Both the position numbers and the translations under genes were made by a program. Of a stretch of 64,000 bases of DNA, positions 5,044 to 50,900 are shown one piece after another. The DNA comes from an uncultured Clostridia bacterium (GTDB taxonomy: Bacteria; Bacillota; Clostridia; Christensenellales; DTU072), in contig CALVUD010000007.1 in assembly GCA_944363505.1 (NCBI GenBank), positions 26,122 to 90,121 on the forward strand, in the 5' to 3' direction. The notes below the pieces were generated by a model that had not been told where the DNA came from, did not search any database, and saw only the letters and a list, made by a program, of their open reading frames with translations. Numbering within the stretch: position 1 is the stretch's first letter; each line of letters begins with the position of its first letter.

Positions 5044-5571
5044 ATGAACGTCGTTTTCGTCGTACTAGGCACGCTGTCGCTCGCAATTTTGCTGTTCACG
5101 AACCCGTCGGGAGCGCTCGGTTCGTTTATGCAGGGCGCGGAAAACTCGCTGAAGCTGAGCATAACTTTGTTTTGCAGTTACGCGTTCTGGCTTTCGGTAA
5201 TAAAGATTCTGGAGCGCGGCGGAGCATTGAAATCGATTAAGAAAATGTTAAATCCGCTGACGAAACGCGTTTTCCCCGGCGAAAACGACGAAACGCTGAC
5301 TCACGTATCCGCGAATTTCGCGGCGAACCTTATCGGAGCGGGCGGCGCCGCCACCCCCGAAGGTCTGAAAGCCGCCGAAAAAATGAAACAAACTAAAAAT
5401 CTCGTAATGCTGGTGACTCTGAATTCCTCCTCGTTACAACTGATACCCACGACCGTCGTCGCCTTGAGAAGCTCGCTGAACGCCGCCGCGGACATAATAT
5501 TACCTTCGCTGATATGCTCCGCCGTTACGACGCTTACCGCGTTCGTACTTACAAAGGCATTCGTAAAATGA
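5044..5571 (+). CDS. spmA: spore maturation protein A (nucleoside-recognition domain membrane protein)
   Basis: 175-aa polytopic membrane ORF. Paired with the spmB-like gene through an ATGA overlap. Confidence 0.8.
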   Translation: MNVVFVVLGTLSLAILLFTNPSGALGSFMQGAENSLKLSITLFCSYAFWLSVIKILERGGALKSIKKMLNPLTKRVFPGENDETLTHVSANFAANLIGAGGAATPEGLKAAEKMKQTKNLVMLVTLNSSSLQLIPTTVVALRSSLNAAADIILPSLICSAVTTLTAFVLTKAFVK

Positions 5572-6071
5572 TTTATTTCGTTCCCGCCCTTACCCTTGCG
5601 GTATTCGTGTTCGGCGCAATCAAAAAAGTAAACGTCTACGACTCGTTTACCGAAGGTATCAAGGAAGCCGTCGGACTGACAATCAAACTGATTCCGTACC
5701 TCGCGACGGTGTTCATGCTGATGGAACTGATGCGGTCAAGCGGACTTTCCGCATTTATCGGACGCACACTTTCACCAGCGTTTCAGTTGCTTGGGATACC
5801 GAAAGAACTATCTGAATTGATCATCCTACGTCCGCTTACGGGCAGCGGCAGTTTAGCCGTTCTGCAAAACATCTACCTCGAATACGGGGTCGATTCCTAC
5901 ATATCCAGGACGGCTTCGGTCATAATGGGTTCGACGGACACGGTGATGTATATCGCGGCGGTGTATTTTTCGGGAACACGGGAGAGCTCGTCCGGAAAAG
6001 CCGTCGGCATCGCGCTTGCGGCAAGTTTTATCGGGGCAATCTCGGCGGCGCTGATATGCCGAATCATGTAA
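5568..6071 (+). CDS. spmB: spore maturation protein B
   Basis: The start is taken at ATG 5568 (MIYFVPALTL...), which overlaps the spmA stop. The ORF-track start at 5514 would overlap spmA by 58 nt. The protein is a membrane protein with the RPLTGSGS block. Confidence 0.8.
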   Translation: MIYFVPALTLAVFVFGAIKKVNVYDSFTEGIKEAVGLTIKLIPYLATVFMLMELMRSSGLSAFIGRTLSPAFQLLGIPKELSELIILRPLTGSGSLAVLQNIYLEYGVDSYISRTASVIMGSTDTVMYIAAVYFSGTRESSSGKAVGIALAASFIGAISAALICRIM

Positions 6072-6207
6072 GCGTAATCGGATCCGCAAAATTTCCCGCC
6101 TTGTAAAAAAAGAACGACGATGTTTCGCCGCTCTTTTTATTTTTCGGTTTATCGGGTCAATCCGCAATTATTATCTGTGATTCGCGGATCGAATTACGCG
6201 TCCTTAA
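6069..6207. repeat. Direct repeat R, copy 1 (the complete spmB/fba-type intergenic spacer)
   Basis: 6069-6139 is identical (71/71) to 6358-6428, 6156-6169 to 6449-6462 (14/14), and 6184-6207 to 6477-6500 (24/24). The copy is bounded by 16-nt inverted repeats, GCGTAATCGGATCCGC at 6072-6087 and GCGGATCGAATTACGC at 6184-6199 (14/16 complementary). Confidence 0.9.
6105..6138. terminator. Rho-independent terminator hairpin inside R copy 1 (bidirectional A-tract/T-tract)
   Basis: AAAAAAAGAACGACG-ATGTTT-CGCCGCTCTTTTT. On the minus-strand RNA the 9-bp stem is fully paired, including two G-U pairs, and is followed by U7. On the plus strand two positions are A-C mismatches. Confidence 0.7.
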
Positions 6208-6356
6208 TTTATTTTCTTTAATTGGTTTAGAACGATATGGCAGCGGATTGTCGTGGAATTTACGATGCGTTTTGTTTAAACGGCAACGAGCCGTATTTGA
6301 ATACGCGTGGGCGCCGTTTAGGGAAAACGGGCGCAAATAACGCGGCAAGGCGCGGC
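6208..6356. repeat. Element X, copy A (unclassified conserved non-coding element)
   Basis: The core 6239-6356 aligns without gaps to 10362-10479 (118 nt each, 88 identical by hand count). Upstream, 6211-6225 resembles 10328-10343. No conserved ORF. Confidence 0.8.
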
Positions 6357-6357
6357 T

Positions 6358-6500
6358 TAAGCGTAATCGGATCCGCAAAATTTCCCGCCTTGTAAAAAAA
6401 GAACGACGATGTTTCGCCGCTCTTTTTAACTTGTTTGTAACTTGTAGAGTCAATCCGCAATTTTAACTAATTTTGTGCGGATCGAATTACGCGTCCTTAA
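6358..6500. repeat. Direct repeat R, copy 2 (ends on the fba stop codon)
   Basis: See copy 1. Similarity starts at TAAGCG and ends at CCTTAA, which contains the fba stop (6497-6499). Confidence 0.9.
6394..6427 (-). terminator. fba terminator (hairpin inside R copy 2)
   Basis: Same hairpin and U-tract as 6105-6138, about 70 nt downstream of the fba stop on the minus strand. Confidence 0.75.
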
Positions 6501-7426
6501 GCTTTGCCGCCGCAACCCAGGACGTACTGGATCTTGTGTTTAACGACTTCTTTTACGCGTTCGCGCGCGGGTCCCAAGTATTGCCTGGGATCGAAGTGAG
6601 AGGGATTGTCGTGGAAATACTTCCTGACCGTCGCGGTTACCGCCATTCTGAGGTCGGAGTCGATGTTGATCTTGCAAACCGCCATTTCGGCAGCCTTTCT
6701 GAGCATCTCTTCGGGAACGCCCTTGGCGCCGGGCATATTGCCGCCGTAACGGTTAATTTCCTCGGCGAGGTATTGAGGAACGCTGCTTGCTCCGTGCAAA
6801 ACGATCGGGAATCCGGGCAAACGCTTGCCTACTTCTTCCAGAATGTCGAATCTGAGTTTTGCTTCGCCCTTGAATTTGAAAGCGCCGTGGCTGGTGCCTA
6901 TGGCTATCGCGAGCGAATCGACGCCCGTCTTTTCGACGAATTCCTGGACCTGATCGGGATCGGTATAGCTGGAATCCGCGGCGGAAACCTTTACGTCGTC
7001 CTCTACGCCCGCGAGCCTTCCGAGCTCCGCTTCGACGACTACGCCGTGATCGTGAGCGTACTCGACAACGTTTTTGGTAATTTTGATATTATCGGAAAAA
7101 GCGTGCGAGGAAGCGTCTATCATGACGGAAGTAAAGCCTTTGTCCACGCAGTCTTTGCACAGTTCGAACGAATCGCCGTGATCGAGGTGTAAGCAGATCG
7201 GCAGTCCGGAATCGATGACCGCAGCCTCCACCAACTTAGTAAGATACGTGGGATTTGCGTATTTCCTGGCGCCCGAGCTGACCTGAAGGATCAAAGGAGC
7301 TCTTTCTTCTTTGGCAGCTTCCACGATGCCCTGGATGATTTCCATGTTATTGACGTTGAACGCGCCGATGGCGTAACCGCCCGCATACGCTTTTTCAAAC
7401 ATCTCTTTACTGGTTACTAATGGCAT
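6497..7426 (-). CDS. fba: class II fructose-1,6-bisphosphate aldolase
   Basis: 309 aa. Motifs MPLVTSKEMF...GAFNVNN, LHLDHG and VLHGASS. SD GGAGGA upstream. Confidence 0.95.
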   Translation of the reverse strand: MPLVTSKEMFEKAYAGGYAIGAFNVNNMEIIQGIVEAAKEERAPLILQVSSGARKYANPTYLTKLVEAAVIDSGLPICLHLDHGDSFELCKDCVDKGFTSVMIDASSHAFSDNIKITKNVVEYAHDHGVVVEAELGRLAGVEDDVKVSAADSSYTDPDQVQEFVEKTGVDSLAIAIGTSHGAFKFKGEAKLRFDILEEVGKRLPGFPIVLHGASSVPQYLAEEINRYGGNMPGAKGVPEEMLRKAAEMAVCKINIDSDLRMAVTATVRKYFHDNPSHFDPRQYLGPARERVKEVVKHKIQYVLGCGGKA

Positions 7427-7504
7427 ATTTATTCCTCCAATTAGGATTTTTTTATATTATACAACCTTTCCGTGTGAAAGTAAATCGAAAACGGCGATTT
7501 CGGC

Positions 7505-7533
7505 TTGTTAAAATTATCTTAGGGCTGTATAAT
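7505..7533 (+). promoter_or_regulatory. sigma-70-type promoter ending 6 nt before ATG 7540 (candidate leaderless transcript)
   Basis: TTGTTA (7505-7510), 17-nt spacer, TATAAT (7528-7533). There is no SD between the -10 box and the ATG. Confidence 0.55.
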
Positions 7534-7539
7534 TTAAGT

Positions 7540-8301
7540 ATGCTGAAAGACGGCGAAGAAATTTTCGATCTTCAATGCGACGGGCTGAAAATAATCCAAC
7601 ATCCCGACGGTTACGCGTTTACGACTGACGCGGTGCTTCTCGCAAACACAGTACGCGCCGCAAAAGGCGACAGAGTGCTGGAACTGGGCACGGGATCGGG
7701 AGTTATAGCCCTGCTCGTCTCAAAAAAAACGAACGCCGGACATATCGACGCCGTTGAGATCCAACCGCGCCTCGCGGACATGGCAAGGCGTTCGGTGGAG
7801 CTGAACGGTCTTTCGGACAGGATCGACATCATCGAGAGCGACATGAAAGAACTCGGATTATCCGGTAAAAGTTATGACGTCGTATGCACTAATCCGCCTT
7901 ATATGACCTATTCAGGCGACGCCTCGGAAGCCACAGAGAACGAGATATGCAAATCCGAGGTTTCGATCACGGTAGCCGAAGTCGTACATACCGCCGCAAA
8001 AGCATTGAAGTACGGAGGAAAGTTTTACGTCGTTTTAAAATCGGAACGTCTGACCGACCTCATATATAATATGCGGCTGAACCATATAGAGCCGAAAATA
8101 ATAACGCCCGTCCAACCCACGGCTAAAAAAGACGTGGATACCGTTTTGGTTACGGGAATCAAGAACGGCAAAAGCGGCGTAAAAGTCATGCGTCCTTTGG
8201 TTATAACCGAAGCGGACGGCAGCTATACCGAAACTGTTAGGAGAATGTATTTCAATGAGTGCGACCCTGTTCGTGGTGGGAACTCCGATAGGAAATCTTA
8301 A
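7540..8301 (+). CDS. tRNA (adenine-N6)-methyltransferase-like SAM-dependent methyltransferase (YabB/TrmN6 type)
   Basis: SAM motif VLELGTGSG and the NPPY motif (VVCTNPPYM). The start is taken at ATG 7540, because the ORF-track start at 7420 would overlap the divergent fba start. Sits next to rsmI, as yabB does in B. subtilis. Confidence 0.75.
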   Translation: MLKDGEEIFDLQCDGLKIIQHPDGYAFTTDAVLLANTVRAAKGDRVLELGTGSGVIALLVSKKTNAGHIDAVEIQPRLADMARRSVELNGLSDRIDIIESDMKELGLSGKSYDVVCTNPPYMTYSGDASEATENEICKSEVSITVAEVVHTAAKALKYGGKFYVVLKSERLTDLIYNMRLNHIEPKIITPVQPTAKKDVDTVLVTGIKNGKSGVKVMRPLVITEADGSYTETVRRMYFNECDPVRGGNSDRKS

Positions 8302-9070
8302 AGACATCACCTTACGCGCGTTGGAAACGCTGAAAAACGTCGATCTGATCGCGTGCGAAGACACACGCCACACGATGATCCTGTTGAACGCCTACGGCAT
8401 TTCGAAGCCGCTTCTGAGCTGTTACCGCGGCAAAGAAAACGAAAGTGCCGAGAAAATCCTATCGGAACTCAACGCGGGAAAAGACGTGGCGCTGGTCTCA
8501 GACGCCGGCATGCCCGCGGTTTCCGATCCGGGCGCCGTGGTCGTGAACGAATGTATTTCAAAAGGTTTCCGCGTGGAATCCGTACCCGGTCCCAGCGCCG
8601 TAGCTACCGCGTTTTCGGTATCCGGAATATGTAAAACGGGATTCGTATTTTTAGGTTTCCTGCCCGACAAAGCGGGTGAAAGAAAACGTATCATAGAGCG
8701 TATGCCATCGTTTAAAATGCCCGTCGCCGTCTATGTCGCGCCGCACGACATAGACAAGATATTACCGGAACTCAAGGCGCAGGCGGGCATCGGGAGAATA
8801 ACCGTCGTCAAGGAACTGACCAAGATCTACGAAAGCGTCATTCGCATTGACGACGAAATCCCCGACTTCGACCGTCGCGGCGAATTCGTCGTCATAGCGG
8901 AGTCGAAGGAAACCGCATCGACCGATACCGACGCGTTCGAAGCGCTCGAAAAGCTGCTGAAAAACGGCGCCACTCCCTCATCTGCCGCAAAGGAGATCTC
9001 CGCGCTTTACGGCGTAAACAAAAACGCTCTTTACCGCCGCGCCCTCGAGTTTTGTTCCGAAAAGCGATAG
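8255..9070 (+). CDS. rsmI: 16S rRNA (cytidine1402-2'-O)-methyltransferase
   Basis: 271 aa. N-terminus LFVVGTPIGNLKDITLRALETL is typical of RsmI. Overlaps the preceding gene by 47 nt. Confidence 0.9.
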   Translation: MSATLFVVGTPIGNLKDITLRALETLKNVDLIACEDTRHTMILLNAYGISKPLLSCYRGKENESAEKILSELNAGKDVALVSDAGMPAVSDPGAVVVNECISKGFRVESVPGPSAVATAFSVSGICKTGFVFLGFLPDKAGERKRIIERMPSFKMPVAVYVAPHDIDKILPELKAQAGIGRITVVKELTKIYESVIRIDDEIPDFDRRGEFVVIAESKETASTDTDAFEALEKLLKNGATPSSAAKEISALYGVNKNALYRRALEFCSEKR

Positions 9071-9126: not shown

Positions 9127-9333
9127 TCAGTAATCCTTGCGCCCCGTAAGGTAATCCAGGTCTTCGCCGAAATAGTCGGCTATCTTACACAGATTTTCCA
9201 AACCGATCTCTCGCTGGCATAAAATATAGCGCGATAAAGTTTGTTGCGGGATCTTTAACTTTTTTGCAACGGAATTTATGCTTTCGTTTCCTATTGTTTC
9301 TTTTAGCCGTTCAGCAAATTTTTCCACATACAT
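9127..9333 (-). CDS. XRE-family helix-turn-helix transcriptional regulator
   Basis: 68 aa. HTH segment SINSVAKKLKIPQQTLSRYILCQREIGLENLCKIADYF. AT-rich codon usage. Confidence 0.85.
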   Translation of the reverse strand: MYVEKFAERLKETIGNESINSVAKKLKIPQQTLSRYILCQREIGLENLCKIADYFGEDLDYLTGRKDY

Positions 9334-9345
9334 TCTGAAATTATG

Positions 9346-9390
9346 TTACACCAAACGGTGTTTAATTCTTGACATTACACCAAACGGTGT
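9346..9390. promoter_or_regulatory. Twin palindromic operators in the divergent XRE/DUF4352 control region
   Basis: TTACACCAAACGGTGT occurs twice (9346-9361 and 9375-9390), each with the dyad ACACC-N4-GGTGT, 29 bp apart. TTGACA lies at 9369-9374 and an extended -10, TGgTATAAT, at 9399-9407. On the minus strand CATAAT lies 6 nt before the XRE ATG. Confidence 0.7.
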
Positions 9391-9427
9391 GATATGCTTG
9401 GTATAATTTATGTGGGGAGGTAAATCC

Positions 9428-10072
9428 GTGTCAACCGATATCGAAGAATTCACTACAAACGAAACAGCCGTAAACACTTCAAGCTCAACAAATCCGAACA
9501 AACAGAATAAAAATTCAAACAAGAAAAATTTTTATAAAAAATGGTGGTTTTGGGTGATAATTGCTGTCGTGGCAGCAATCATAATCGGGGCTGCCGCAGG
9601 AAGCGCGGACGGTAACGGGGGCGACGAAATTCAAGATCATGAAAACGTCAATTCAAGCGAAGCCTGGTACATATGCGATAACGCGACCAACAGTTCTGAT
9701 ATTGTTTTCAAAGTAAATTCCGTGCAAAACACTCAATTTGTCGGAAGCGGCATACTTTCGGAAAGCACCTCAAATAATTTCGCTATTGTAAATATTTCCA
9801 TCAGCAACAATAGCGACAAACCGTTTTCCGCCAACCCGAATAATTTTAATTTAGTATTAAACGGCAAGAAATATAATTATCATAGTGCAACATACTATCT
9901 CGACAACGGAATGTCAAGCCAGGACGATATAAATCCCGGCATTACGAAAACGTACAGAATAGTTTTCGAAGTTCCCACGTCGACCTTAAATGACACCTAC
10001 ACTTTGGTTTGCGGCAACAACTACTCATTGCCGTGGAAGGACATCGAAATACTGCTTAAAGAAAGAAGCTGA
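9428..10072 (+). CDS. DUF4352-like membrane-anchored protein
   Basis: A GTG start at 9428 sits 7 nt after SD GGGGAGG; the ORF-track start is 9410. The protein has an N/K-rich N-terminus, one TM helix (WWFWVIIAVVAAIIIGAAAG) and a C-terminal beta-sandwich-type pattern (FAIVNISISNNSDKPF...INPGITKTYRIVFEVP). AT-rich. Confidence 0.65.
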   Translation: MSTDIEEFTTNETAVNTSSSTNPNKQNKNSNKKNFYKKWWFWVIIAVVAAIIIGAAAGSADGNGGDEIQDHENVNSSEAWYICDNATNSSDIVFKVNSVQNTQFVGSGILSESTSNNFAIVNISISNNSDKPFSANPNNFNLVLNGKKYNYHSATYYLDNGMSSQDDINPGITKTYRIVFEVPTSTLNDTYTLVCGNNYSLPWKDIEILLKERS

Positions 10073-10101
10073 GTCTTTTCTATCATCATTACGATAAAGC
10101 G

Positions 10102-10129
10102 AAAAGTCCGAGAAAAAATCGGACTTTTT
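10102..10129 (+). terminator. Rho-independent terminator of the DUF4352 gene
   Basis: AAAAGTCCGA-GAAAAAA-TCGGACTTTTTC. Confidence 0.75.
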
Positions 10130-10179
10130 CATTGCTCAAGATATAATAAGTTTTTATCTTCAATATAATCTCGCGCGCC
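10102..10179. repeat. Repeat R-B, copy 1 (terminator plus spacer downstream of the DUF4352 gene)
   Basis: Aligns with 10515-10599. Shared blocks are AAAAG(T/C)CCGAGA...TCGGACT, TAATAAGTTTTTA, TCAATA and CTCGCGCGC. Confidence 0.65.
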
Positions 10180-10220
10180 ATGATATGCCCTATCACGCTT
10201 TTGCATTTACAACGCGCTAT

Positions 10221-10310
10221 GGCAGCAATTCGGAACAGATTTTTCGGAACGATCGGACGAAACGGCGAGGAAAGCGTACGAACGTACTCGACCGAGCCGC
10301 CGCTTTAAGG
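10221..10310. repeat. Element X, degenerate unit B1
   Basis: Shares TATGGCAGC.ATT.GGAA, AAACGGCG and CCGAGCCG, in the same order as copies A and B2. The rest has diverged. Confidence 0.5.
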
Positions 10311-10324
10311 TACGATAAAAGTCA

Positions 10325-10479
10325 ATATATTTCGTTTAATTAGCTGATTCAGGAGTGCTTAGGCAGCGGATTGCCTCGGAATTTCAGAAATGTTTGCTTA
10401 AAACGGCGCCGAGCCGTATCGACATACGCGACGGCGGCGTTTTACGGAAACAGGCTGAAATAACGGGGTAAGGCGCGAC
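10325..10479. repeat. Element X, copy B2
   Basis: The core 10362-10479 matches 6239-6356 at 88/118 positions without gaps (hand count). Confidence 0.8.
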
Positions 10480-10514
10480 GAAGATATTTCGCGCGCTTCG
10501 ATTCTATCCTTATG

Positions 10515-10546
10515 AAAAAAGCCCGAGAGAAGCTCTCGGACTATTT
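10515..10546 (-). terminator. ilvE terminator
   Basis: The minus-strand RNA is GUCCGAGAG-CUUC-UCUCGGGC followed by U6. Confidence 0.75.
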
Positions 10547-10599
10547 CTTAACTATGGTTTTAATAAGTTTTTAACCTCAATAAATATTTCTCGCGCGCG
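10515..10599. repeat. Repeat R-B, copy 2 (terminator plus spacer downstream of ilvE)
   Basis: See 10102-10179. It ends in the near-palindrome ATATTTCTCGCGCGCGAAATAT (10584-10605), next to the ilvE stop. Confidence 0.65.
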
Positions 10600-10609
10600 A
10601 AATATCAAT

Positions 10610-11665
10610 TTAATTGACGTGCACTACCCACCCGAACGGATCGGCATAACGTCCCGTCTGGATACCTGTCAGTTTGTCGTACAGGAACGCGGTGATCTTG
10701 CCCATTTCGAAGTTGTTGATGACCATGTCTTCGCCGTCGATACCCAGAACGCCTACGGGGCTGATGACAGCCGCGGTACCGGAACCGAACGCCTCGTTCA
10801 TATGTCCGTTCTTTATAGCGTTGCGGATGTCGTCGACGCTGATACGGCACTCTTCCACGGGCATACCTTCGTGTTCGAGCACTCTGATAACGGAATCTCT
10901 GGTAATGCCGGGAAGTATAGAACCTACAAGCGCGGGAGTTTTCACTACGCCGTCGAACACGAAGAACATATTCATCGCGCCCACTTCCTCAACATACTTT
11001 TTCTCTTTCGCGTCCAACCAGAGCACCTGTTCGTAGCCGTGCTTGTTGGCTATGTCGCCCGCGAGCAGGCTTGCGGCGTAGTTGCCCATACATTTTGCCT
11101 CGCCCGTGCCGCCCAAAGGCGCGCGAACGTATTCGTTTTCGATCATTATCTTCGTCGGGGTCAGACCGCTTTCGTAATAGCTTCCGACAGGCGACAAAAT
11201 GATAAAGAAACGGTAAGTGTGTCCGGGATGCACGCCGAGCATGGGATCGGTCGCTATCATCGTGGGACGGATATAAAGCGCGGTGCCGGGCTCGGTGGGG
11301 ATCCAGTCCTCGTCTATCATTATAAGCTTTTTGAGGTTTTCTACGGTTTCCTCGACGTCCAGAGCGGGCATGCAAAGTCTTGCCGCGGAACGGTTCATGC
11401 GTCTGAAATTGTCATAGGGACGGAACATAGTTATTTTGCCGTCCTTGTTCTTGTACGCTTTCAGACCTTCGAAGATCCCCTGTCCGTAATGCAATACGCA
11501 GGTCGACGGATCGAGAGCGAAAGGCTGATAAGGCATTATTTCGGGTTCCAGCCATTTGCCGTCCTTATAGTCCATGACGAGCATATGGTCGGTAAAATAC
11601 TTTCCGAAACCGAGCTTCGAATAATCGGGCTTAGCCTTTTTTTGCTTCGTGAGAGTGATTTTCAT
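10610..11665 (-). CDS. ilvE: branched-chain amino acid aminotransferase
   Basis: 351 aa. Fold-type IV PLP enzyme pattern, including GTGEAKCMGNYAASL. Confidence 0.92.
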   Translation of the reverse strand: MKITLTKQKKAKPDYSKLGFGKYFTDHMLVMDYKDGKWLEPEIMPYQPFALDPSTCVLHYGQGIFEGLKAYKNKDGKITMFRPYDNFRRMNRSAARLCMPALDVEETVENLKKLIMIDEDWIPTEPGTALYIRPTMIATDPMLGVHPGHTYRFFIILSPVGSYYESGLTPTKIMIENEYVRAPLGGTGEAKCMGNYAASLLAGDIANKHGYEQVLWLDAKEKKYVEEVGAMNMFFVFDGVVKTPALVGSILPGITRDSVIRVLEHEGMPVEECRISVDDIRNAIKNGHMNEAFGSGTAAVISPVGVLGIDGEDMVINNFEMGKITAFLYDKLTGIQTGRYADPFGWVVHVN

Positions 11666-33868: not shown

Positions 33869-34897
33869 TTACAGCTTTTTGCCGCACTCGGGACAAAACT
33901 TTGCGCCCGAATCCACTTTCGCCCCGCACTCGGGACAGAACTTAGAGCCGATCTGCTTGCCGCACTCGGGACAGAATTTGGACTTTGCAGGCACGCTTTT
34001 ACCGCATTCGGGGCAGATTACCGCTCCCGCGTCGGCTGTCGTTTTTTTGGGTTCGTCGTTTGAAAAGCCTTTGGAAAATTGCGCTCCCATACCGAAGCCC
34101 ATAGCGGCGCCCATGGCGGTACCCATTGTCTGACCCATCGCGGAATTGTTCTTCGCCGCCTCGCGTATGGCGTCCGCCTCTGCGAGTTTTCTGTAGATCT
34201 CGGCGTTTTTGCCGAACATGCTGAGTCTGGCGTTCTCGTCGAACGCCTTTTCGAGTTCGGGCGGCAAAGAAACGCTCTCGAACACGAACGTGCTGAGTTC
34301 TATGCCGTTTTCCTCCATGTGCGGTTCCAGTTTCTTCCCTACCGCGGCGCTCAGTTCCAGTAAATTCGCCGCCATGTCAAGGACGGGCACGCCGCTCTCG
34401 CCTATCGCGTCGGACAAGCCCATGACCAACATACTGCGGATAAAGTCGGTGATGTCCGATGTCGCAAACGAAGACTTGACGCCCATAAGCACGGTCAGGA
34501 ACTTGTACGGGTCGCTCACGCGGAAGGCGTAGGTCCCGTAAGCCCTGAGTCTTATAGCGCCGTAATCGGCGTCGCGCACCATGACGGGGGTCGCCGTTCC
34601 CCATTTAAGTCCCGAAAAACGCGCCGTATTCACAAAATACAGATCGTCCTTATACGGGGTTTCGAAGGCGAATCGCCACGCCATCAGCCTTGTCAGGATC
34701 GGGATCGTCCTGGAGTCGAGACTGTACGTCCCGGGACCGAACACGTCGGCAAGTTTGCCGCGGTCGCAAAAGATCGCCGCCTGTCCTTCCCTTACGACCA
34801 GCCTGGAGCCGCGCTCTATCGCGTTTTCTCTGGTCGGATACTTGTAAACTATCGTGTCGGGCGCTCCCGACCATTCAATGATCTGTAATAAAGCCAT
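33869..34897 (-). CDS. SPFH/Band-7-like protein (COG4260, YdjI-like) with four C-terminal CPECG zinc-ribbon knuckles
   Basis: The start is taken at ATG 34897 (MALLQIIEWSG...), preceded by GGGAG. The body pattern VVREGQAAIF...YFVNTARFSGLKWGTATPV...AYGTYAFRVSDP fits the family. The tail reads CPECGKSVPAKSKFCPECGKQIGSKFCPECGAKVDSGAKFCPECG. Confidence 0.8.
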   Translation of the reverse strand: MALLQIIEWSGAPDTIVYKYPTRENAIERGSRLVVREGQAAIFCDRGKLADVFGPGTYSLDSRTIPILTRLMAWRFAFETPYKDDLYFVNTARFSGLKWGTATPVMVRDADYGAIRLRAYGTYAFRVSDPYKFLTVLMGVKSSFATSDITDFIRSMLVMGLSDAIGESGVPVLDMAANLLELSAAVGKKLEPHMEENGIELSTFVFESVSLPPELEKAFDENARLSMFGKNAEIYRKLAEADAIREAAKNNSAMGQTMGTAMGAAMGFGMGAQFSKGFSNDEPKKTTADAGAVICPECGKSVPAKSKFCPECGKQIGSKFCPECGAKVDSGAKFCPECGKKL

Positions 34898-36801: not shown

Positions 36802-38163
36802 TTATTCTTCGGTCTTTTCAGCTTCGGCTTCGGAAGTCGCGGGGGCTTCGGGAGCCGCTATAATTTCGGGCGCCGCGGGGGCTTCGGGAGCCGCTTTAGC
36901 TTCGGCATCGGAAACGGCTTCGGCTGAAGTTTCGGGAACTATTTCGACCTTTGCGACGGCGCGTGAAGCCGCAATCTTTTTGATGGTGTTGACGATCACG
37001 GCAAATCCCTTTTCGAACACTTCGACGCTCAAACGGTCGGAAGTGTCGTTATTGGTGTGATAATAGTCGGAAACGGTGGGCATCTGTGCGGCGAAGGTTA
37101 CGGTACGCACGCCGACCTTGCAGAACGGAGTGGAATCGCACCCGCCCACGGGATTGACGATCTCGTTGATCTTTTCGCCCGTTTCTCCGATCGCTTCCTT
37201 CATCATGTCGATCATTCCCCTGTCGAACTTCGTGCCCTGCCACGGGTCGCCCTTGACGGCGGCGAAGTATCCGGGGTCGGAAATGGAATCCACGTTCAGG
37301 ACGTACATGTTGTTTTTGTCGAACTCGTCCTTATGCGCTTTGACGTATGCGAACGAGCCTTTCAGTCCCGATTCTTCCGCAGCGAAGCCGATATTGACAA
37401 GCTTCATTCCCTCGGGCATCTCTTCGGGATGTTCTTTGAAATACTTCATTACCATCATATTCAGACCTATGCCGCTCATGTTGTCCATGGCGCCGGGGCT
37501 GCCTATGGTCTTGTCCTGAGTCAGGAAATGGCTGATAAAGAAAAATCCGGGGATCGCCGCCACGGGAAGAACGTATAACACTATCGAAGCGACGTATGCG
37601 TCCTCCAGCACGCCGAAGGTGTTCAGTATGCTGAAAAGGCTCATTACCGCCATGCCTACGGCGCAAAGTATTCCGTAGCCGGTCTTGATCATAGCGGTCT
37701 TGGGGTTCATCGCGGCGAGTTTCCAGCACCAGCTGGTATCGTAATGCGCGCCGAGATATACGGTATAGTCGGTTTTGCCGTTTCGGGGTTCGAGTTCGGT
37801 TATGATATTTTCGGCTTTCTCTTTTTTGAAACAGAAATCCCATATTCCCGTATAACGCACTATCTGCATAAAGGTAAACACCAGAATACCTATGTATCCG
37901 ATAAGCGAGAGGATCGGCGCTCCTATGTAATAAAGCACCAACAGCGCCATGGCGACCCAGCCCAGTTTGTTGATGGCGCCGATACTCGCCTCGGGCGCGA
38001 AAACAAAACTTTCCGTCCTGGGTTTCAGACCGACTCTTTCGTTCATTTCGCCTACAAGCTTTTTGCAAGCGGCTTTTTCTTCGGCAGAGCCGGGCAGTCT
38101 GGCGCCGTCCGCTTCTATGGTCCGGACGATCTCCATTGCTTCTTCTGCGTATTTTCTGTACAT
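36802..38163 (-). CDS. M28-family membrane metallopeptidase with an Ala/Pro/Glu-rich C-terminal tail
   Basis: 453 aa. Internal TM helices, zinc-ligand blocks GAMDNMSGIG and FAAEESGLKGS, and the tail APEAPAAPEIIAAPEAPATSEAEAEKTEE. Confidence 0.8.
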   Translation of the reverse strand: MYRKYAEEAMEIVRTIEADGARLPGSAEEKAACKKLVGEMNERVGLKPRTESFVFAPEASIGAINKLGWVAMALLVLYYIGAPILSLIGYIGILVFTFMQIVRYTGIWDFCFKKEKAENIITELEPRNGKTDYTVYLGAHYDTSWCWKLAAMNPKTAMIKTGYGILCAVGMAVMSLFSILNTFGVLEDAYVASIVLYVLPVAAIPGFFFISHFLTQDKTIGSPGAMDNMSGIGLNMMVMKYFKEHPEEMPEGMKLVNIGFAAEESGLKGSFAYVKAHKDEFDKNNMYVLNVDSISDPGYFAAVKGDPWQGTKFDRGMIDMMKEAIGETGEKINEIVNPVGGCDSTPFCKVGVRTVTFAAQMPTVSDYYHTNNDTSDRLSVEVFEKGFAVIVNTIKKIAASRAVAKVEIVPETSAEAVSDAEAKAAPEAPAAPEIIAAPEAPATSEAEAEKTEE

Positions 38164-44914: not shown

Positions 44915-47900
44915 TCATACCCCCACTATTTTGTCGAGGCTTTCGGGCCACAGCTCGCGATACTTTTCTATAGCCTCGGCGGGGACCCTGATCTCCGATA
45001 CCGAATCGAACACGCCGCTTTCCACCGTTATCGACGACGGATCGGTTGCACTGAACCTTAGCGCGAATCCCTCGGCGGTATTTTCGAACGCGCCCGCTCC
45101 TATCGATACCACGCTTGCGGGTAGCGAAACTTCGGTCAGCGAAACGCAGTCCTTGAACGCGCCGCCCGGTATTTCCGTCAGGGCGGTGCCCGAAAGATTT
45201 ACCGCGGTAATGTTTCCGTTACCCGCGAACGCGTCGGCGGCTATGCCCTTGAAATATCCGGGTAGCGTAACGCTCGCGGAAGAACCGACGTATCTTATCA
45301 GAATACTCGGCGCCGAGGCAAGCACGTATCCCGTAGTAGCCTGAGATATTTCTGCCTCCAGCCACGCCGTACCGTCGAACGCGCCCGCGCCTATACGCTT
45401 GACGGTCGAAGGAATGGTAACGGCGGAAACGTTGCTCCATCCCTTTATGAATCCGTCGGCTATGACGTCGGCTGCCGCCAAAGCGATTATCTGAACGCTC
45501 TTTATGTTTTCGAGAACCCCGCCGGTCATGTCCGATATCGGCGTGTCGCCGTAAACGGTCAGCGAAGTAATTAAGGGATCGGAGAGCATGTCGCTGAGTT
45601 CCGCGGGGGAAACGAGCGGCGCTTTCGGTAGCGCTATGCCCGTGATCTTGCCGGAACCCGTCATCCCTTCCAGAGCGCCCTCGACTATCGATTTCACGTT
45701 GTCGGGTAAGTTCCACGTGCCGTCGAACGGCGTCACTTTCTTATAGAAAATATATCCTGCCGTTTCGTTTCCGAAAGTCACGTCCTGCGACGCGGAATTC
45801 AGCCACGCCGTACCGTCGAACGCGCCCGCGCCTATATTCGTAAGATTGCTTAAAGTTCTGAGCCTCGATCCGACCGTGGTCAGGTTCAGACAGTCTTTGA
45901 AAGCGTTTTCGCCTATCGAATTCAGCAAACTGCCCTCCTCGACTTCCACCTGAGTCAGGAAGGTGTTTCCTTCGAACGCGCCCGCCGCGATAGTTCTGAC
46001 GTCGAAAGGCACTACGTATGACGACGCTTCTCCGGTATACCTTATCAAGATCTTGCCGCCGACGGAAGAGTTTAGTATCAGCGCGCCGTCGGTTGCGGTG
46101 ATCTGAGTGCCTTCAAACGCAGTTTCGGCTACATATGTTACGCTTTCGGGTAGCGAAACGCTGCTGAGATACTGGCAATACGCGAAAGCGTAATCGAGGA
46201 TCGATTCCGCCCTGCTGCCCGCCTCGAAACGTATCTGCGTTACGGAAAGTCCCATCGAAGAATACTTGTAATCCCCGTTGTCGATCGTCGCGTTCGCAAA
46301 CGCCGCGGTGTTGACGACTATCGCGTCCGCAGGGATGACCACGTCGGTCGAACCGCCCGTACCCGAAGGGTCGTATTTGTAATACAGCACTCCGCCCAGC
46401 ATTATGTTGCTGTTGCCGTAGCGCGTGGACGAATAACTCCGATACCAGACTGTGTTTTCGAGCGAATTGACGCCGACCTTTCTGATACTGGCCGGGAACG
46501 AAACCGAGCTAATGTGATCCCATCCGAGCAACAGTTCGTCTACCGTTTCCACGGTGCCTTCCTCTATCATGACCGAAGTAACCACGCTCATCGCGCCGAG
46601 GTTGCCGTCCAGCAACTCGTTCATCGTAACCGCGCCGTTATATTCGATAACGTGTACGGAATGCACGTCTATAACGCTTCTTAAGGTCGCCGCGGAAAGT
46701 TTGCGCGCGTCGGGAGTAACGTCCAGAACTCTGAGGACGCTGAGCTCGGAAAGGTTACTCAGCGCACTCGCTTCGGCGGTTATGCCGTAACGAAGACCTA
46801 CCGACGTAACCGAACCGGTCAAAACGGCGCCGGACAAGGATTTCACGACGGCGGTCTGAATGTTGCCGCCCGCCGATACTTCCACCTCCGCGGGAATGTC
46901 CACGTCGGTAACTTCGCCGATATACGTGCCGTCCGCGCTCTCGGTATACAGTCTGTACATATACAACACGCCCGAAGTGGAGATCAGATAATGCGCTACG
47001 GTGCGCACGTCGCCCGAAAGCGAGACCTCGGTCTCGTAATCGTAAACGGTGCTGAGCGCGACCACGTTGCCTACGCCCGTTCCCCACGAGGCGTAATTAC
47101 CTGTACCGCTATAGAATATCGTAATGTTATCGACGCCGCCGAGCACGTTGCCGCCCGTAAGCTCGGGTTCCGCGCCCTCTCTGTCGTTAAACAGCAATCT
47201 GATCAGTTTTTCCGCGCCGTTGAAAGCGTCGGAGCTTATCTGAGCCACGCTTGCGGGTATATATACGGTTTCAGCCACGCTGTCGGAGAACGCATAGCCG
47301 TTTATAGATGTAGCGCGCGCGTCTATACGCACCACGGATTCGGCGCTTCTGACCTCTATCAGAGTTCCGCCGATAAATACGAATTCGGAGTCCTGAGCGT
47401 TCATCCAGCCCGTGCCTCTGAACGCCGCGGAGCCTATCGAAACGCCCTCAAGAGCATTTTCGGCTTCGACGGTTTCCAGCGCGTAAACCTCCTGTCCGGA
47501 GCGCACGAAAATACCGTTGACCGAACCTGCGTTTTCGAGGAACGAATCGGGAATTGAGACCGCGTCCGAAATATCTATATATATTGATTTAAGGTTCTGC
47601 GGCAGATCGGCGCCCGAATTCAGTCCGAATACGGCAGCCACGCCGACGGGTGTGTTTATCGTCAGCGAAACGTCTCCCGCCGTCGCCGAAACCAGTCTGT
47701 AAATCAGGTTGTCGGCGCCCGTGCCGCTCCTAAGCGAAGCCTGCGGATCTTCGTTGACGCGACTGTTGACGTTCAGCGTTATTTCGGTTGCAAAAGTCAG
47801 TCCTCCGAACGGGTTATCGCCTATCGGGACCAAAGCAGTATCGACTTCTATCGCCGTACTCGAACGGGTGAACGCGTAATCGCCTATTCTGTCTACCGCA

Positions 47901-50900
47901 GTTCCCGATATGGTCGCGGGCGTAATAACCGCGCCGCTTTCCTCGGGCACGGACATATATTTCAACAACGCGATCGCGTTACTGTAATACGCGTAAACCC
48001 AGCCGCTCGCCTCGTCGTAACCGACGTTGCTGACCGCGATAGGCGATTTTACTCCCGATACGGACGATTCGGCGTACAGACTGAATTCTCCCGAATCGTT
48101 CAGCGTGCCCGTAAGCGCGTTTTCGGGAACGGTCGCGGACCCCGCGACGACGAGTACCGCGAATTTCGAAGAATTCATAAACGCGTATTCGCCTATTTCC
48201 GCGCCGGAGCCGGTAAGATATACGCTTTCCAGATTCACGGCGTTCGCAAACGCATATTCGCCTATGGTCTTTACGCCTTCGGGCAAAACGACCTGTCTGA
48301 CGGACGAATTATATTCAAAAGCGTTCGGGGAAACCGCAATGGCGTTTTCGGGAACCCATACTACGGACGCGGTACCGGTATACGAATACAGAATGCCTGC
48401 GCCGAGCATCGTGAATCCGTCGGAATCGACGTATGCGTCGACCCACGGAACGCCGTCGAACGCGCCGTTGCCTATCGTCTGTACCGCGCCGGGTATACCG
48501 TCGGTATAATCGTCACCGTCATAAGTCAGCACCGTAGACAGCGATATATCGCCCGAAAAAGCCGAAGTCTCGATGGAATTCAGATATGTAAGCGAATCGA
48601 AATACAATTCTCTTAACGCAGTCATTCCGGCAAACGCCTCTACGCCCAGCGATTCCACGTACTCGCCGACGTGCACGCGCGTTATGAACGTCTGATCCGC
48701 GAACATATAGTCGGGCAGTCCGAACGAGGAAGTACCGTAAACTTCGACCTCGGTTATCTTGGAGGGAAGCTGTCCGCCGAAAATGCCCGAAGCGGTAACG
48801 TTGGGGTTTACCAGCGTAAGTTTGTAAAGGCTGTCGGAGGTAACGTATGCCTGCGTCAAAGCCGCACCCGACACCGTATATCCCGAATACAGATCGCGCA
48901 CTATCGTCAGGTTTTCGAGTATGGATGCGGAATAGAACGTATCCGCTTCAATACTGAGCGTGCTGCCGAATTCGACGCTGTAAATAATGGACGAGAACAC
49001 GTTGGAGCCCAGTCCCACGACCGTATAGGTCTTGCCCGCTTCGCTTGCGGGCGTACCGCTTTGGGTCATGACCGTAACGGTATTCGGAACTTCCACGTCG
49101 AAAAAGTAACCGGTTCTTTCGTCGCCCAGATACTGTAAAAGAATCACGGAGTCGCTCATCGACGAATCGATCGCGTAGGACCAGATACCGCCGTCGGGAG
49201 CGATTGCCATGCTGTATTTCGAAACGAGTTTGTCGCTTAACGCCGTCCAATTTGTACCGCCGGCGACATAGCGCGAAACCTCGGGCACGTATATGCGGAA
49301 GTTCAGGTAGGACAGCCCAGAGTTGTAGAACACTTCCGTACCCAGCACCGCGGGTTCGGAGCGGTCGAATACCGCGTACATCAGCTCGCTCGCTTCAAAG
49401 AACGCCCTGTCTCCCAGTCTTTGCAGGGAAGCGGGCAGGAACACGCGCCTCAGCGACAATGCGCCCATAAACGCGCCCTCTCGGATTTCCGTAAGCGACG
49501 ACGGGAAAGAAACGTCGTCGGTCGCCGTTACGGAGCCTGCGGCGTCCACGACGTACAGATCGTTCAGCTTCAACGACAAGCAGCCCGAGAAAGCGTAACT
49601 GCCTATCACCGACAGCTCGGCGCCCTCGCGGAACCTGACGGTCTCAAGCATCTCGCAGTCGCGGAAGCAGTTGTCGGGTATCGTGCCAACGCGCTGAGGT
49701 ATGGTTATTTCGGTAAGCGCTGTATTTTCGAAAGCGCCGGGCCCGAACGAAATTATCGTATCGGGGAGCGTTACGGACACGATCGCGGTATCCGCGAACG
49801 CTTCCGTTCCTATCTGAGTTACGGGCACGCCCATATAGTAGTTTGCCACCGTAACTTCCGTTGCCGTACCCGTGTAACCGGCTACGTATGCTTCCGTTCT
49901 GTTTTCGTTCAGCGCGTACTCGACGCCCTCCGTTCCCTCGGCTACGGCTTCCCATGCCGCGTACAATACCAAATCTGAGGTAACGGGCGTCGAAAAATCG
50001 TAACGGGTTACGAACGCGGGATCGACGTACCAGTCAAGGAACACCATATTCTCCCACGCCGCCGAAGGCGCAGCGACGGCGGAATTGTGTACCACCGTTA
50101 CGGGGTCGATTACGTAACCGTCGATGTTCGTAACGAACGATACGGTATATCTCGTGGCTTCCGTTACCGCATAGAAAGTCGTATCGCCGCTAAGCACATA
50201 AAATACGCCTGCGGGTTTCAACGCGCCCGAGCCTTCGCCGACAAGCACATATTGACCGGAGGAATTGACCGTGTACCAGCCGTTATCCACGAAATACAAC
50301 CTTTCGGCGAAATTCGACCAGGTGCTCGTCCTTATCAGATTGGCGATCTCGCCCGCGTCGCAAGTTACCAGATAGTCCGCTCCTTCGCCGACGACCAGAT
50401 AAGAAGCCGTATAAACGTCCTCGCCGACGCCGCCTGCCTTATACCACTCTCCCGTAGCGGGATCGTAGTAAATGCGCGTACCTTGAGCGTCCTTTCTCCA
50501 GCCCAGGAAATCGACGCCTTCTTCCGTTACCGCGGACACCGATTCGCGATATCCCGCTATGCCGGAAGTGAAGCCTATCACCGTTCCGTAATCGTAATTT
50601 ACGGGAAGACTGAGCGAATTGCCCTCGAAATCGTACTGGGGATATTCGATATTGCCTTCTCCTATGAATTTAAGAGTGTACGAATTGATCGTGAATACGG
50701 GCACGAACGACATATCCGAAACGACGTCGGTGGCGCTGGCGCCGTCGGGAATCGCCCTGAAACCCGTAAAGGTATAGCCTTGGCGTTCGGGAGACGCCAC
50801 GTCCTGAGGCAGTCTGACGGAGTCGTGGAAATCCGCCTCGGTCGAATAAAGCGGAACGGTCGCCTGTTCGTCGGCATACCAGGTCACGGTAAAGCGATTG

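Follow-up and report, generated by a model that had tools for sequence, protein, structure and literature searches.

Anatomy of the spmB-fba spacer

The window analysed here, by which we mean the whole 64-kb stretch of DNA, carries two convergent genes, spmB and fba, whose intergenic spacer is made up of two copies of one module (R1 and R2) with a further element, X, between them. The features of this spacer are as follows.

5514..6071, plus strand: spmB, of the Gate/nucleoside-recognition family (open reading frame; Pfam PF07670 on an identical protein)
6069..6207, minus strand: R1, first copy of the spacer module (repeat comparison, inverted repeats, folding)
Parts of R1: 5' arm 6072-6087; terminator hairpin 6107-6138; segment V1, allele a, 6140-6155
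Hairpin 2 of R1: stems 6156-6165 and 6184-6192; loop V2, allele a, 6170-6183; 3' arm 6184-6199
6208-6357: X as a whole, between R1 and R2
6208..6233, plus strand: leader of X, variable and AT-rich (four or more unrelated alleles, counting the population and the sister species together)
6234..6357, plus strand: core of X, an imperfect hairpin with its stem from about 6239 to 6356, candidate structured RNA (covariance model, covariation, folding)
6358..6500, minus strand: R2, second copy of the spacer module and working fba terminator (repeat comparison, inverted repeats, folding)
Parts of R2: 5' arm 6361-6376; terminator hairpin 6396-6427; segment V1, allele b, 6429-6448
Hairpin 2 of R2: stems 6449-6458 and 6477-6485; V2, allele b, 6463-6476; 3' arm 6477-6492
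6497..7426, minus strand, convergent with spmB: fba, class II fructose-bisphosphate aldolase (open reading frame; PF01116)

Homologues of SpmB are annotated as spore maturation protein B, and their taxonomy puts the source bacterium with uncultured Christensenellales/Clostridia. A preliminary description of this DNA had reported the duplication of the spacer at 6069-6207 and 6358-6500 around X, which we confirmed to the base, together with its statement that the identity runs from the stop codon of one gene to that of the other. Indeed, the spmB TAA stop (6069-6071) provides the opening three bases of R1, and R2 ends in TTA followed by A, where TTA (6497-6499) is the reverse complement of the fba stop. 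Between these limits the two copies form exactly the succession of blocks that had been described. Identity is complete over the first 71 nt (71/71 at 6069-6139 and 6358-6428), after which 16 nt of R1 (6140-6155) are unrelated to 20 nt of R2 (6429-6448). An identical 14-nt block, GTCAATCCGCAATT, is common to both (6156-6169 and 6449-6462); it is followed by 14 versus 14 nt with an identity of about 4/14 (6170-6183 and 6463-6476) and by a final 24 nt that are again identical (6184-6207 and 6477-6500).

No R block was found elsewhere within the 64-kb window, where the 32-nt hairpin block has no place besides R1 and R2 (0 expected). An independently assembled contig, L018, contains the same R1-X-R2 sequence as the window, and the arrangement is thus not an artefact of the window's own assembly.

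Module R is a clamped terminator of fba

Each copy of R is bounded by 16-nt inverted repeats (6072-6087/6184-6199 and 6361-6376/6477-6492) with 14/16 complementary positions, as previously noted; none of 100 shuffles reached 6 matches. Complementarity of the arms ranges from 14/16 to 16/16 on R copies and is 14/14 on R', the corresponding module at a second locus described below. Further copies of the 16-nt repeats, for which a search had been suggested, do not occur in the window. When genome contigs were searched with an arm-derived 17-mer, the probe proved too degenerate, giving at least 119 chance matches, none of those listed containing R, X or fba.

Upon folding, the arms of R form a 16-bp closing stem, here called the clamp, around the terminator hairpin and a second hairpin (for R1, z -2.8 on the plus strand and -5.7 on the minus strand). 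V1 is the linker from the terminator to hairpin 2, and V2 is the loop of hairpin 2, whose stems are GTCAATCCGC and GCGGATCGA. On the minus strand the terminator reads GAGCGGCGA-AACA-UCGUCGUUC and then U7, which makes it an intrinsic terminator of -16.8 kcal/mol whose stem contains two G.U pairs. The same hairpin is weak on the plus strand (-9.4 kcal/mol), where it carries two A.C mismatches. The "complete terminator hairpin" that had been recognised in the 71-nt block is therefore complete on the fba strand but not on that of spmB. A consensus terminator scan did not pick it up because its A and T runs join the stem. Since both inner hairpins fold better on the minus strand, R is primarily a 3' module of fba and, for spmB, a leaky terminator at best. 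No V allele is the reverse complement of another, and R was rejected as an invertible segment.

Every lineage with this gene order, down to 65% SpmB identity, has R at the orthologous spmB-fba site. Relatives without X keep it at the orthologous position as well, with a length of 125-131 nt in L012 and L158 and of 116 nt in L155. The clamp persists in altered sequence: in L140, a contig of the sister species, it is a perfect 16/16 (GCGTGATCCGAGCCGC/GCGGCTCGGATCACGC) with three double changes relative to the window species; in L012 it reads TTTATCCGC/GCGGATAAA, and in L155 CGATTTACGG/CCGTAAAGCG, with 9/10 pairs. The orthologous position, and a clamp that is kept while its sequence changes, argue that R is a vertically inherited, constrained structure rather than a recently arrived miniature inverted-repeat element (MITE).

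X is a candidate structured RNA

The covariance model of X matches the window at 6223-6360 with 159 bits. X and its paralog X', which is found at the second locus, have in common a hairpin that is about 118 nt long and contains 41 pairs. Canonical pairs occupy 98% of the pair cells, as against 36-54% in controls with slid partners. In seven pairs both partners have changed, and one of these, a C-G/G-C switch, is polymorphic among alleles at a single locus, although this covariation comes from only about three independent lineages (X, X' and the sister species). Every X or X' sequence contains two to four G.U pairs and at most one A.C pair. The folding energy of X is -51.9 kcal/mol on the plus strand and -37.2 kcal/mol on the minus strand, and for X and X' alike the plus strand is favoured by about 14 kcal/mol. 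This asymmetry, together with the excess of G.U over A.C pairs, indicates an RNA read in the direction of spmB. Thus, a conserved fold, compensatory changes and strand asymmetry, all seen in few independent lineages, come together in X as in a structured RNA. Processes acting on the palindrome at the DNA level can also keep the arms of X complementary.

Between the window and the sister species X is 88.7% identical, in comparison with 68.8% for R2 and 59-73% for the third codon positions of spmA, spmB and fba. Its better conservation argues that X is under purifying selection. X most likely gives rise to an RNA downstream of spmB, either a 3'-UTR element or a small RNA that would end at the next R. 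A consensus scan revealed no convincing promoter upstream of X. As the leader exists in at least four unrelated alleles and lacks a promoter consensus, we favour the prediction that X is transcribed from upstream, by read-through of a leaky R1.

A coding function for X was rejected: an open reading frame of 52 aa is broken by indels in several variants, is absent from X', and differs mostly non-synonymously in the sister species. A search for spurious gene calls matching a 98-aa minus-strand frame on other copies of X returned nothing. Neither X nor X' has a plus-strand match in Rfam 15, even at E<=10 or E<=5, and X found none in BLAST searches of plasmids and phages. In JGI metagenomes and viral contigs, X patterns gave either no match or chance matches that the covariance model rejected. 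Apart from X and X', neither the window nor a further 20 kb of flanking sequence taken from other contigs, about 84 kb in total, contained any copy. X constitutes a new, narrowly distributed candidate RNA family, and the present analysis flags, in an uncultured gut Clostridia lineage, a conserved plus-strand hairpin of about 120 nt that no Rfam family matches.

A second locus pairs an X paralog with a duplicated terminator

X' was first found with a profile built from X variants; it lies 4 kb away on the same strand, between rsmI (or an inserted HTH/DUF4352 pair) and a convergent aminotransferase gene. The features of this far locus are listed below.

10078..10180, no strand assigned: R'1, upstream partial copy of the far-locus terminator module (direct repeat with 10502-10598, z 12.9)
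Parts of R'1: hairpin 10102-10128, AT-rich part, ...TCTCGCGCGC
10346..10483, plus strand: X', paralog of X, leader and hairpin (nhmmer E 1.5e-21; covariance model 138.7 bits)
10483..10606, minus strand: R'2, far-locus terminator module of 124 nt (inverted repeats, direct repeat, folding)
10610-11665, minus strand: convergent aminotransferase gene

X' folds with -56.2 kcal/mol on the plus and -42.3 kcal/mol on the minus strand (z -4.8). The clamp of R'2 is a perfect 14-nt inverted repeat (10483-10496/10593-10606) enclosing a hairpin at 10516-10546; the module surrounds the terminator of the aminotransferase gene and ends 3 nt short of its stop codon. The two R' copies in L001 share about 83 nt with 2 mismatches, and at this locus the 5' arm of the R' clamp falls inside the "insert". 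The intervening region Y (10181-10345) was no more stable than shuffles when considered as a structured RNA. The locus is hypervariable: L011 and L019 carry a duplication of a unit of some 220 nt, L016 has a deletion of the hairpin apex, and X'-R'2 has been replaced in L013, L017 and the sister species.

Within the 64-kb window, the repeats flanking X and X' are the only long intergenic direct repeats lying within 2 kb of each other, and a terminator clamped by inverted repeats occurs only at these two loci. The likeness of R2 to R'2 is weak (z 5.2, attained by 1 of 500 shuffles), and on sequence grounds the homology of R and R' is only suggestive. X is nonetheless paired with a duplicated terminator module at both of its two loci. 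To this extent the earlier proposal that a terminator had been captured with the element survives, as the terminator duplication beside X is echoed at X'.

Array length and R alleles vary among strains

By exact-protein look-ups of SpmB and Fba we gathered 16 complete spmB-fba spacers of the species, namely the window and 15 independent contigs, with identical or near-identical SpmB and Fba flanks. The copy numbers given here derive from short-read metagenome assemblies. Twelve of the 16 spacers are R-X-R (one of them with an N gap, the others 426-511 nt), three are R-X-R-X-R (L003, L016 and L020; 719-748 nt), and one, L008, has a single R and no X in 137 nt next to the same SpmB protein. The period of the head-to-tail array is 288-293 bp. 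In these short-read assemblies the spacer thus behaves as a variable-number tandem repeat (VNTR), with a head-to-tail unit and with one, two or three copies of R in different strains. Many short-read contigs stop within a few tens of bases of entering R, as a true repeat would lead one to expect. In a lineage at 76% SpmB identity, every contig breaks 122 nt into R. The locus breaks short-read assemblies and could be used to tell strains apart. Assembly errors could underlie some of the odd variants, among them internal duplications in L172, a 22-nt duplication in L016 and the N gap in L002.

Alignment of all R copies resolved them into discrete segment alleles: the 5' arm with its linker occurs as A1, A2 or A3, V1 as a, b or c, and V2 as a, b, b', c or d. 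These alleles appear in nearly all combinations, in first, middle and last copies alike. Because they reassort freely between copies and strains, the mosaic in the window is one combination among those formed as diverged haplotypes exchange patches. The preliminary description had listed an unusual insertion or repair mechanism among the possible explanations; patchwise exchange of at least three haplotypes per segment, with the linker and the loop of hairpin 2 as the replaced blocks, makes an exotic repair product unnecessary.

Within a single genome of this species, R1 and R2 are 80% to 99% identical, well above the 69% found for orthologous R2 between species, as is characteristic of concerted evolution. 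In L173, which has a divergent R1 allele, the likeness to R2 ends at the inverted-repeat arm instead of extending to the stop codons. What the identity from stop to stop in the window shows is therefore the reach of recent conversion rather than the original bounds of a duplication, a reach that would be limited by coding sequence on one side and by X on the other. What had appeared as a "139-bp target duplication" is thereby documented as a bacterial intergenic region that evolves in concert and varies in copy number, and this can be seen directly in metagenome populations.

The preliminary description had predicted an empty site with a single R, and L008 supplies one, but it offers no proof that X was inserted recently. 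Its single R carries a rare 52-nt middle (V1c-V2d, with the rare CTCTTCTT variant) as in R1 of L173, and its 3' end is of the R2 type. From its sequence, this allele looks like the collapse of an array by crossover between R1 and R2, with deletion of X, and not like an ancestral empty site.

The arrangement predates a species split

In the sister species (L140 and L166; 87% SpmB identity) the order is spmB, a degenerate R1, X, a complete R2 and fba; its R1 has kept the arms and hairpin 2, and the terminator is deleted. Since the sister species shares the arrangement, R-X-R is older than the split between the two species.

The block consisting of fba, a methyltransferase gene and rsmI lies between the two X loci. 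Relative to spmB, this block is inverted in lineages at 70% and 67% SpmB identity but not at 65%, and in the inverted lineages the spacers are short and plain, with neither R nor X. The X and X' loci hence fall at the two ends of a segment that has been inverted repeatedly. Among the called genes within 10 kb on either side, there was no transposase, reverse transcriptase, integrase or other recombinase. The tie of both X copies to duplicated clamped terminators and to the ends of a recurrently inverted block presents a testable puzzle.

Explanations for the R-X-R arrangement

The spmB-fba spacer is probably an old, recombining intergenic tandem array of the form (R-X)n-R, in which the fba terminator module alternates with a conserved plus-strand hairpin. 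R would be the native 3' module of fba, with a minus-strand terminator and a second hairpin inside the 16-bp clamp. Unequal homologous crossing-over between copies of R would expand and collapse the array, and gene conversion among these copies and between strains would keep R1 and R2 alike. Such conversion would give rise both to the stop-to-stop identity in the window and to its mosaic of identical and replaced blocks, the latter corresponding to linker and hairpin loop that are presumably unconstrained. The array itself is a known kind of thing; X is the new, uncharacterised element.

Recombination of this sort accounts for the maintenance of the array and for changes in its copy number, but not for the first terminator duplications beside X and X'; that such a duplication stands next to both copies is left unexplained by ordinary recombination. 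Duplication of a composite X-R unit, duplicative insertion, or selection for insulation could be the reason for the pairing. We give a rather small chance to the idea that X is an undescribed structured RNA element whose local spread duplicates the resident terminator module on both sides. Spread of this kind might depend on the RNA or on the hairpin, for example through target-primed copying at terminators or through break repair provoked by the palindrome, and would create self-insulated "terminator-X-terminator" units for recombination to amplify. The paralogs X and X' bracket a block whose orientation is reversed in related lineages.

Several other origins can be weighed against the recombining array. 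It is unlikely, if conceivable, that X is mobile but non-autonomous and, on integrating, duplicates 80-140 bp of target with the terminator in it, either by staggered cuts lying far apart or by target-primed synthesis. In that case R1 and R2 would represent one very long target-site duplication, and the single-R allele would be the empty site. Locus-specific direct repeats that include the local terminator do flank both X and X', with no others in the 64 kb; a single-R allele exists; X can be parsed as flanked by TTAA...TTAA; and IS1634/IS1549-type long direct repeats offer a precedent. Against this, X occurs in only two copies in about 84 kb, 4 kb apart, and is unmatched in JGI metagenomes, viral contigs, plasmids and phages; no transposase or reverse transcriptase is encoded within 10 kb on either side; and the single-R allele looks recombinant. 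X has no defined ends, for the sequence adjoining the hairpin is not conserved, and the extent of the duplication is not constant, its bounds varying between strains and loci (L173, L140 and the far locus). Moreover, X is under purifying selection, and the arrangement predates speciation, with R1 already decayed in the sister species. The 139-nt target duplication or attL/attR-like scars proposed in the preliminary description are contradicted by that R-X-R order with a degenerate R1, by the identity in L173 that stops at the inverted-repeat arms and by the existence of three-copy arrays. Mobility of R itself is very improbable. As a MITE- or REPIN-like element of 128 bp with 16-bp terminal inverted repeats, R would have landed twice side by side, leaving X as an ordinary spacer, or would form a MITE-flanked composite. 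Inverted repeats of 16 bp indeed bound each R, R' has a perfect 14-bp pair, and both modules are about 125 bp long. Yet the 64 kb hold no other copy of an arm or R block where many dispersed copies would be expected, and instead of presence or absence at non-orthologous sites with short target duplications we found R at the orthologous site down to 65% SpmB identity, with arms that have changed in a compensatory way.

There is hardly any room for a tandem duplication of the spacer with the 3' ends of both genes, in which X would be a decayed fba tail joined to an spmB tail. X and fba do share an exact 14-nt match, GGATTGTCGTGGAA (6245-6258 in X, 6603-6616 in fba), and KFHDNP translated from X resembles YFHDNP of Fba. 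Alignment of X to fba and spmB was, however, not above shuffles (local alignment score 28, below the best of 200 shuffles at 34, with no similarity to spmB), and X as a gene remnant was rejected; X is a conserved hairpin with a paralog unrelated to fba and is better conserved than synonymous sites. Misassembly of a single R or some other structure into R-X-R deserves next to no credence. Short-read assemblies do break or carry runs of N at the spacer, and some variants are odd, but the same R-X-R junctions recur in at least 12 independent assemblies from different samples, R1 and R2 usually differ in their V1 and V2 alleles, which anchors each of them uniquely, and the sister species shows this order too. 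A cassette array of integron type but lacking an integrase, with R resembling attC, X as a tiny non-coding cassette and exchange by a tyrosine recombinase, is equally hard to credit. It would suit the R-X-R-X-R order, the imperfect-palindrome ends of about 130 bp with a variable centre, the variable cassette number and the CTTAAGC found at both R2 boundaries. The arms of R, however, read GCGTAAT.../...ATTACGC and lack the integron core sites RYYYAAC and GTTRRRY, no recombinase gene lies within 10 kb on either side, both cassettes are the same element, and R is an orthologous gene terminator in relatives without X.

Relation to known systems

A literature search found no direct precedent for the R-X-R arrangement; several known systems resemble parts of it. 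Elements of the IS1634/IS1549 group duplicate their target as direct repeats that are tens to hundreds of bp long. X is likewise an insert between direct repeats, but it has no transposase, terminal inverted repeats or defined ends, and its arrangement is ancient and recombining.

The BIME, REP and ERIC sequences of enterobacteria are transcribed as hairpins of 3' UTRs and can vary in copy number. Like the spacer studied here, they are mosaics of palindromic units and variable linkers at the 3' ends of genes and between convergent genes, and the imperfect palindrome ERIC measures about 127 bp, close to X in size. They are dispersed in tens to hundreds of copies, whereas X has two in about 84 kb; they share no sequence similarity with X, which is unmatched outside its own clade.

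In Listeria, LhrC1-4 are head-to-tail units of a structured small RNA and a terminator, with an extra paralog elsewhere, and resemble X and X' in this respect. The copy number of X is polymorphic within the species, unlike that of LhrC1-4; X is a candidate RNA known from sequence; and the terminator module here belongs functionally to the convergent gene.

With VNTR and MIRU loci the array shares head-to-tail intergenic units, bounds that abut the flanking stop codons and a copy number that varies between strains, which unequal recombination or slippage would produce. Its unit is much larger (289 bp versus 40-100 bp) and composite, combining a terminator module with a conserved hairpin; moreover, the array comprises one to three units, and its R copies swap diverged segment alleles.

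Inversion of the fba block and variation at its ends

In lineages whose SpmB is 70% and 67% identical to that of the window, the block comprising fba, the methyltransferase gene and rsmI (window 6497-9070, compared with L149-L153 and L155) is flipped relative to spmB, so that the order reads spmB forward, rsmI and the methyltransferase gene reverse, and fba forward. The block occurs without inversion in a lineage with 65% SpmB identity. Both X/R loci of the window, the R-X-R array in the spmB/fba spacer and the far locus in the rsmI/aminotransferase spacer, lie at the same places as the ends of this inversion.

The rsmI/aminotransferase spacer proved hypervariable when window positions 10073-10609 were compared with L001, L011, L013, L016, L017, L019 and L166. 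L011 and L019 each carry a tandem duplication of a unit of about 220 nt, which consists of region Y and a 5' fragment of X', the paralog of hairpin element X. In L016 the apex of X' has been lost between CGGAA repeats, and L013, L017 and the sister species have an unrelated terminator region in place of X'-R'2. In the window, two genes separate rsmI from the far repeat locus:

9127-9333, minus strand, HTH_3 gene
9410-10072, plus strand, DUF4352 gene

This pair (9127-10072) is a presence/absence polymorphism, being carried by the window, L011, L012, L016, L018 and L019 and missing from L001, L013, L014 and L017. Downstream of rsmI in L015 and L020, Flg_new/PKD-domain surface-protein genes replace the aminotransferase, Impact and TyrRS genes, a swap that is a further rearrangement breakpoint at the far locus.

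R-like modules and minor observations

All five contigs of the lineage with 76% SpmB identity (L144-L148) stop 122-135 nt past the spmB stop codon, within an R-like module (GCGTAATTGTATGCGC ... terminator), which suggests that this lineage also has the repeat and that it breaks assemblies there too. In the 511-nt spmB/fba spacer of L172, 15 nt of R1 and about 65 nt of R2 are additionally duplicated within the respective copy. The two duplications share the junction GAATTAC|TC and reflect either slippage or faulty assembly.

Coding regions of the window contain a 37-nt motif present seven times across 4.7 kb, as well as short tandem arrays whose periods are 18/36 nt and 42 nt (together covering 45068-49814, 36826-36905 and 33878-33976). 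These repeats are unrelated to the R/X finding.

Gene calls differ at the start of spmB (window 5514-5571): some assemblies give 185 aa, with an overlap of 58 nt with spmA, and other assemblies, like every relative, give 167 aa. The true start is probably the one of the shorter call, at about 5568.
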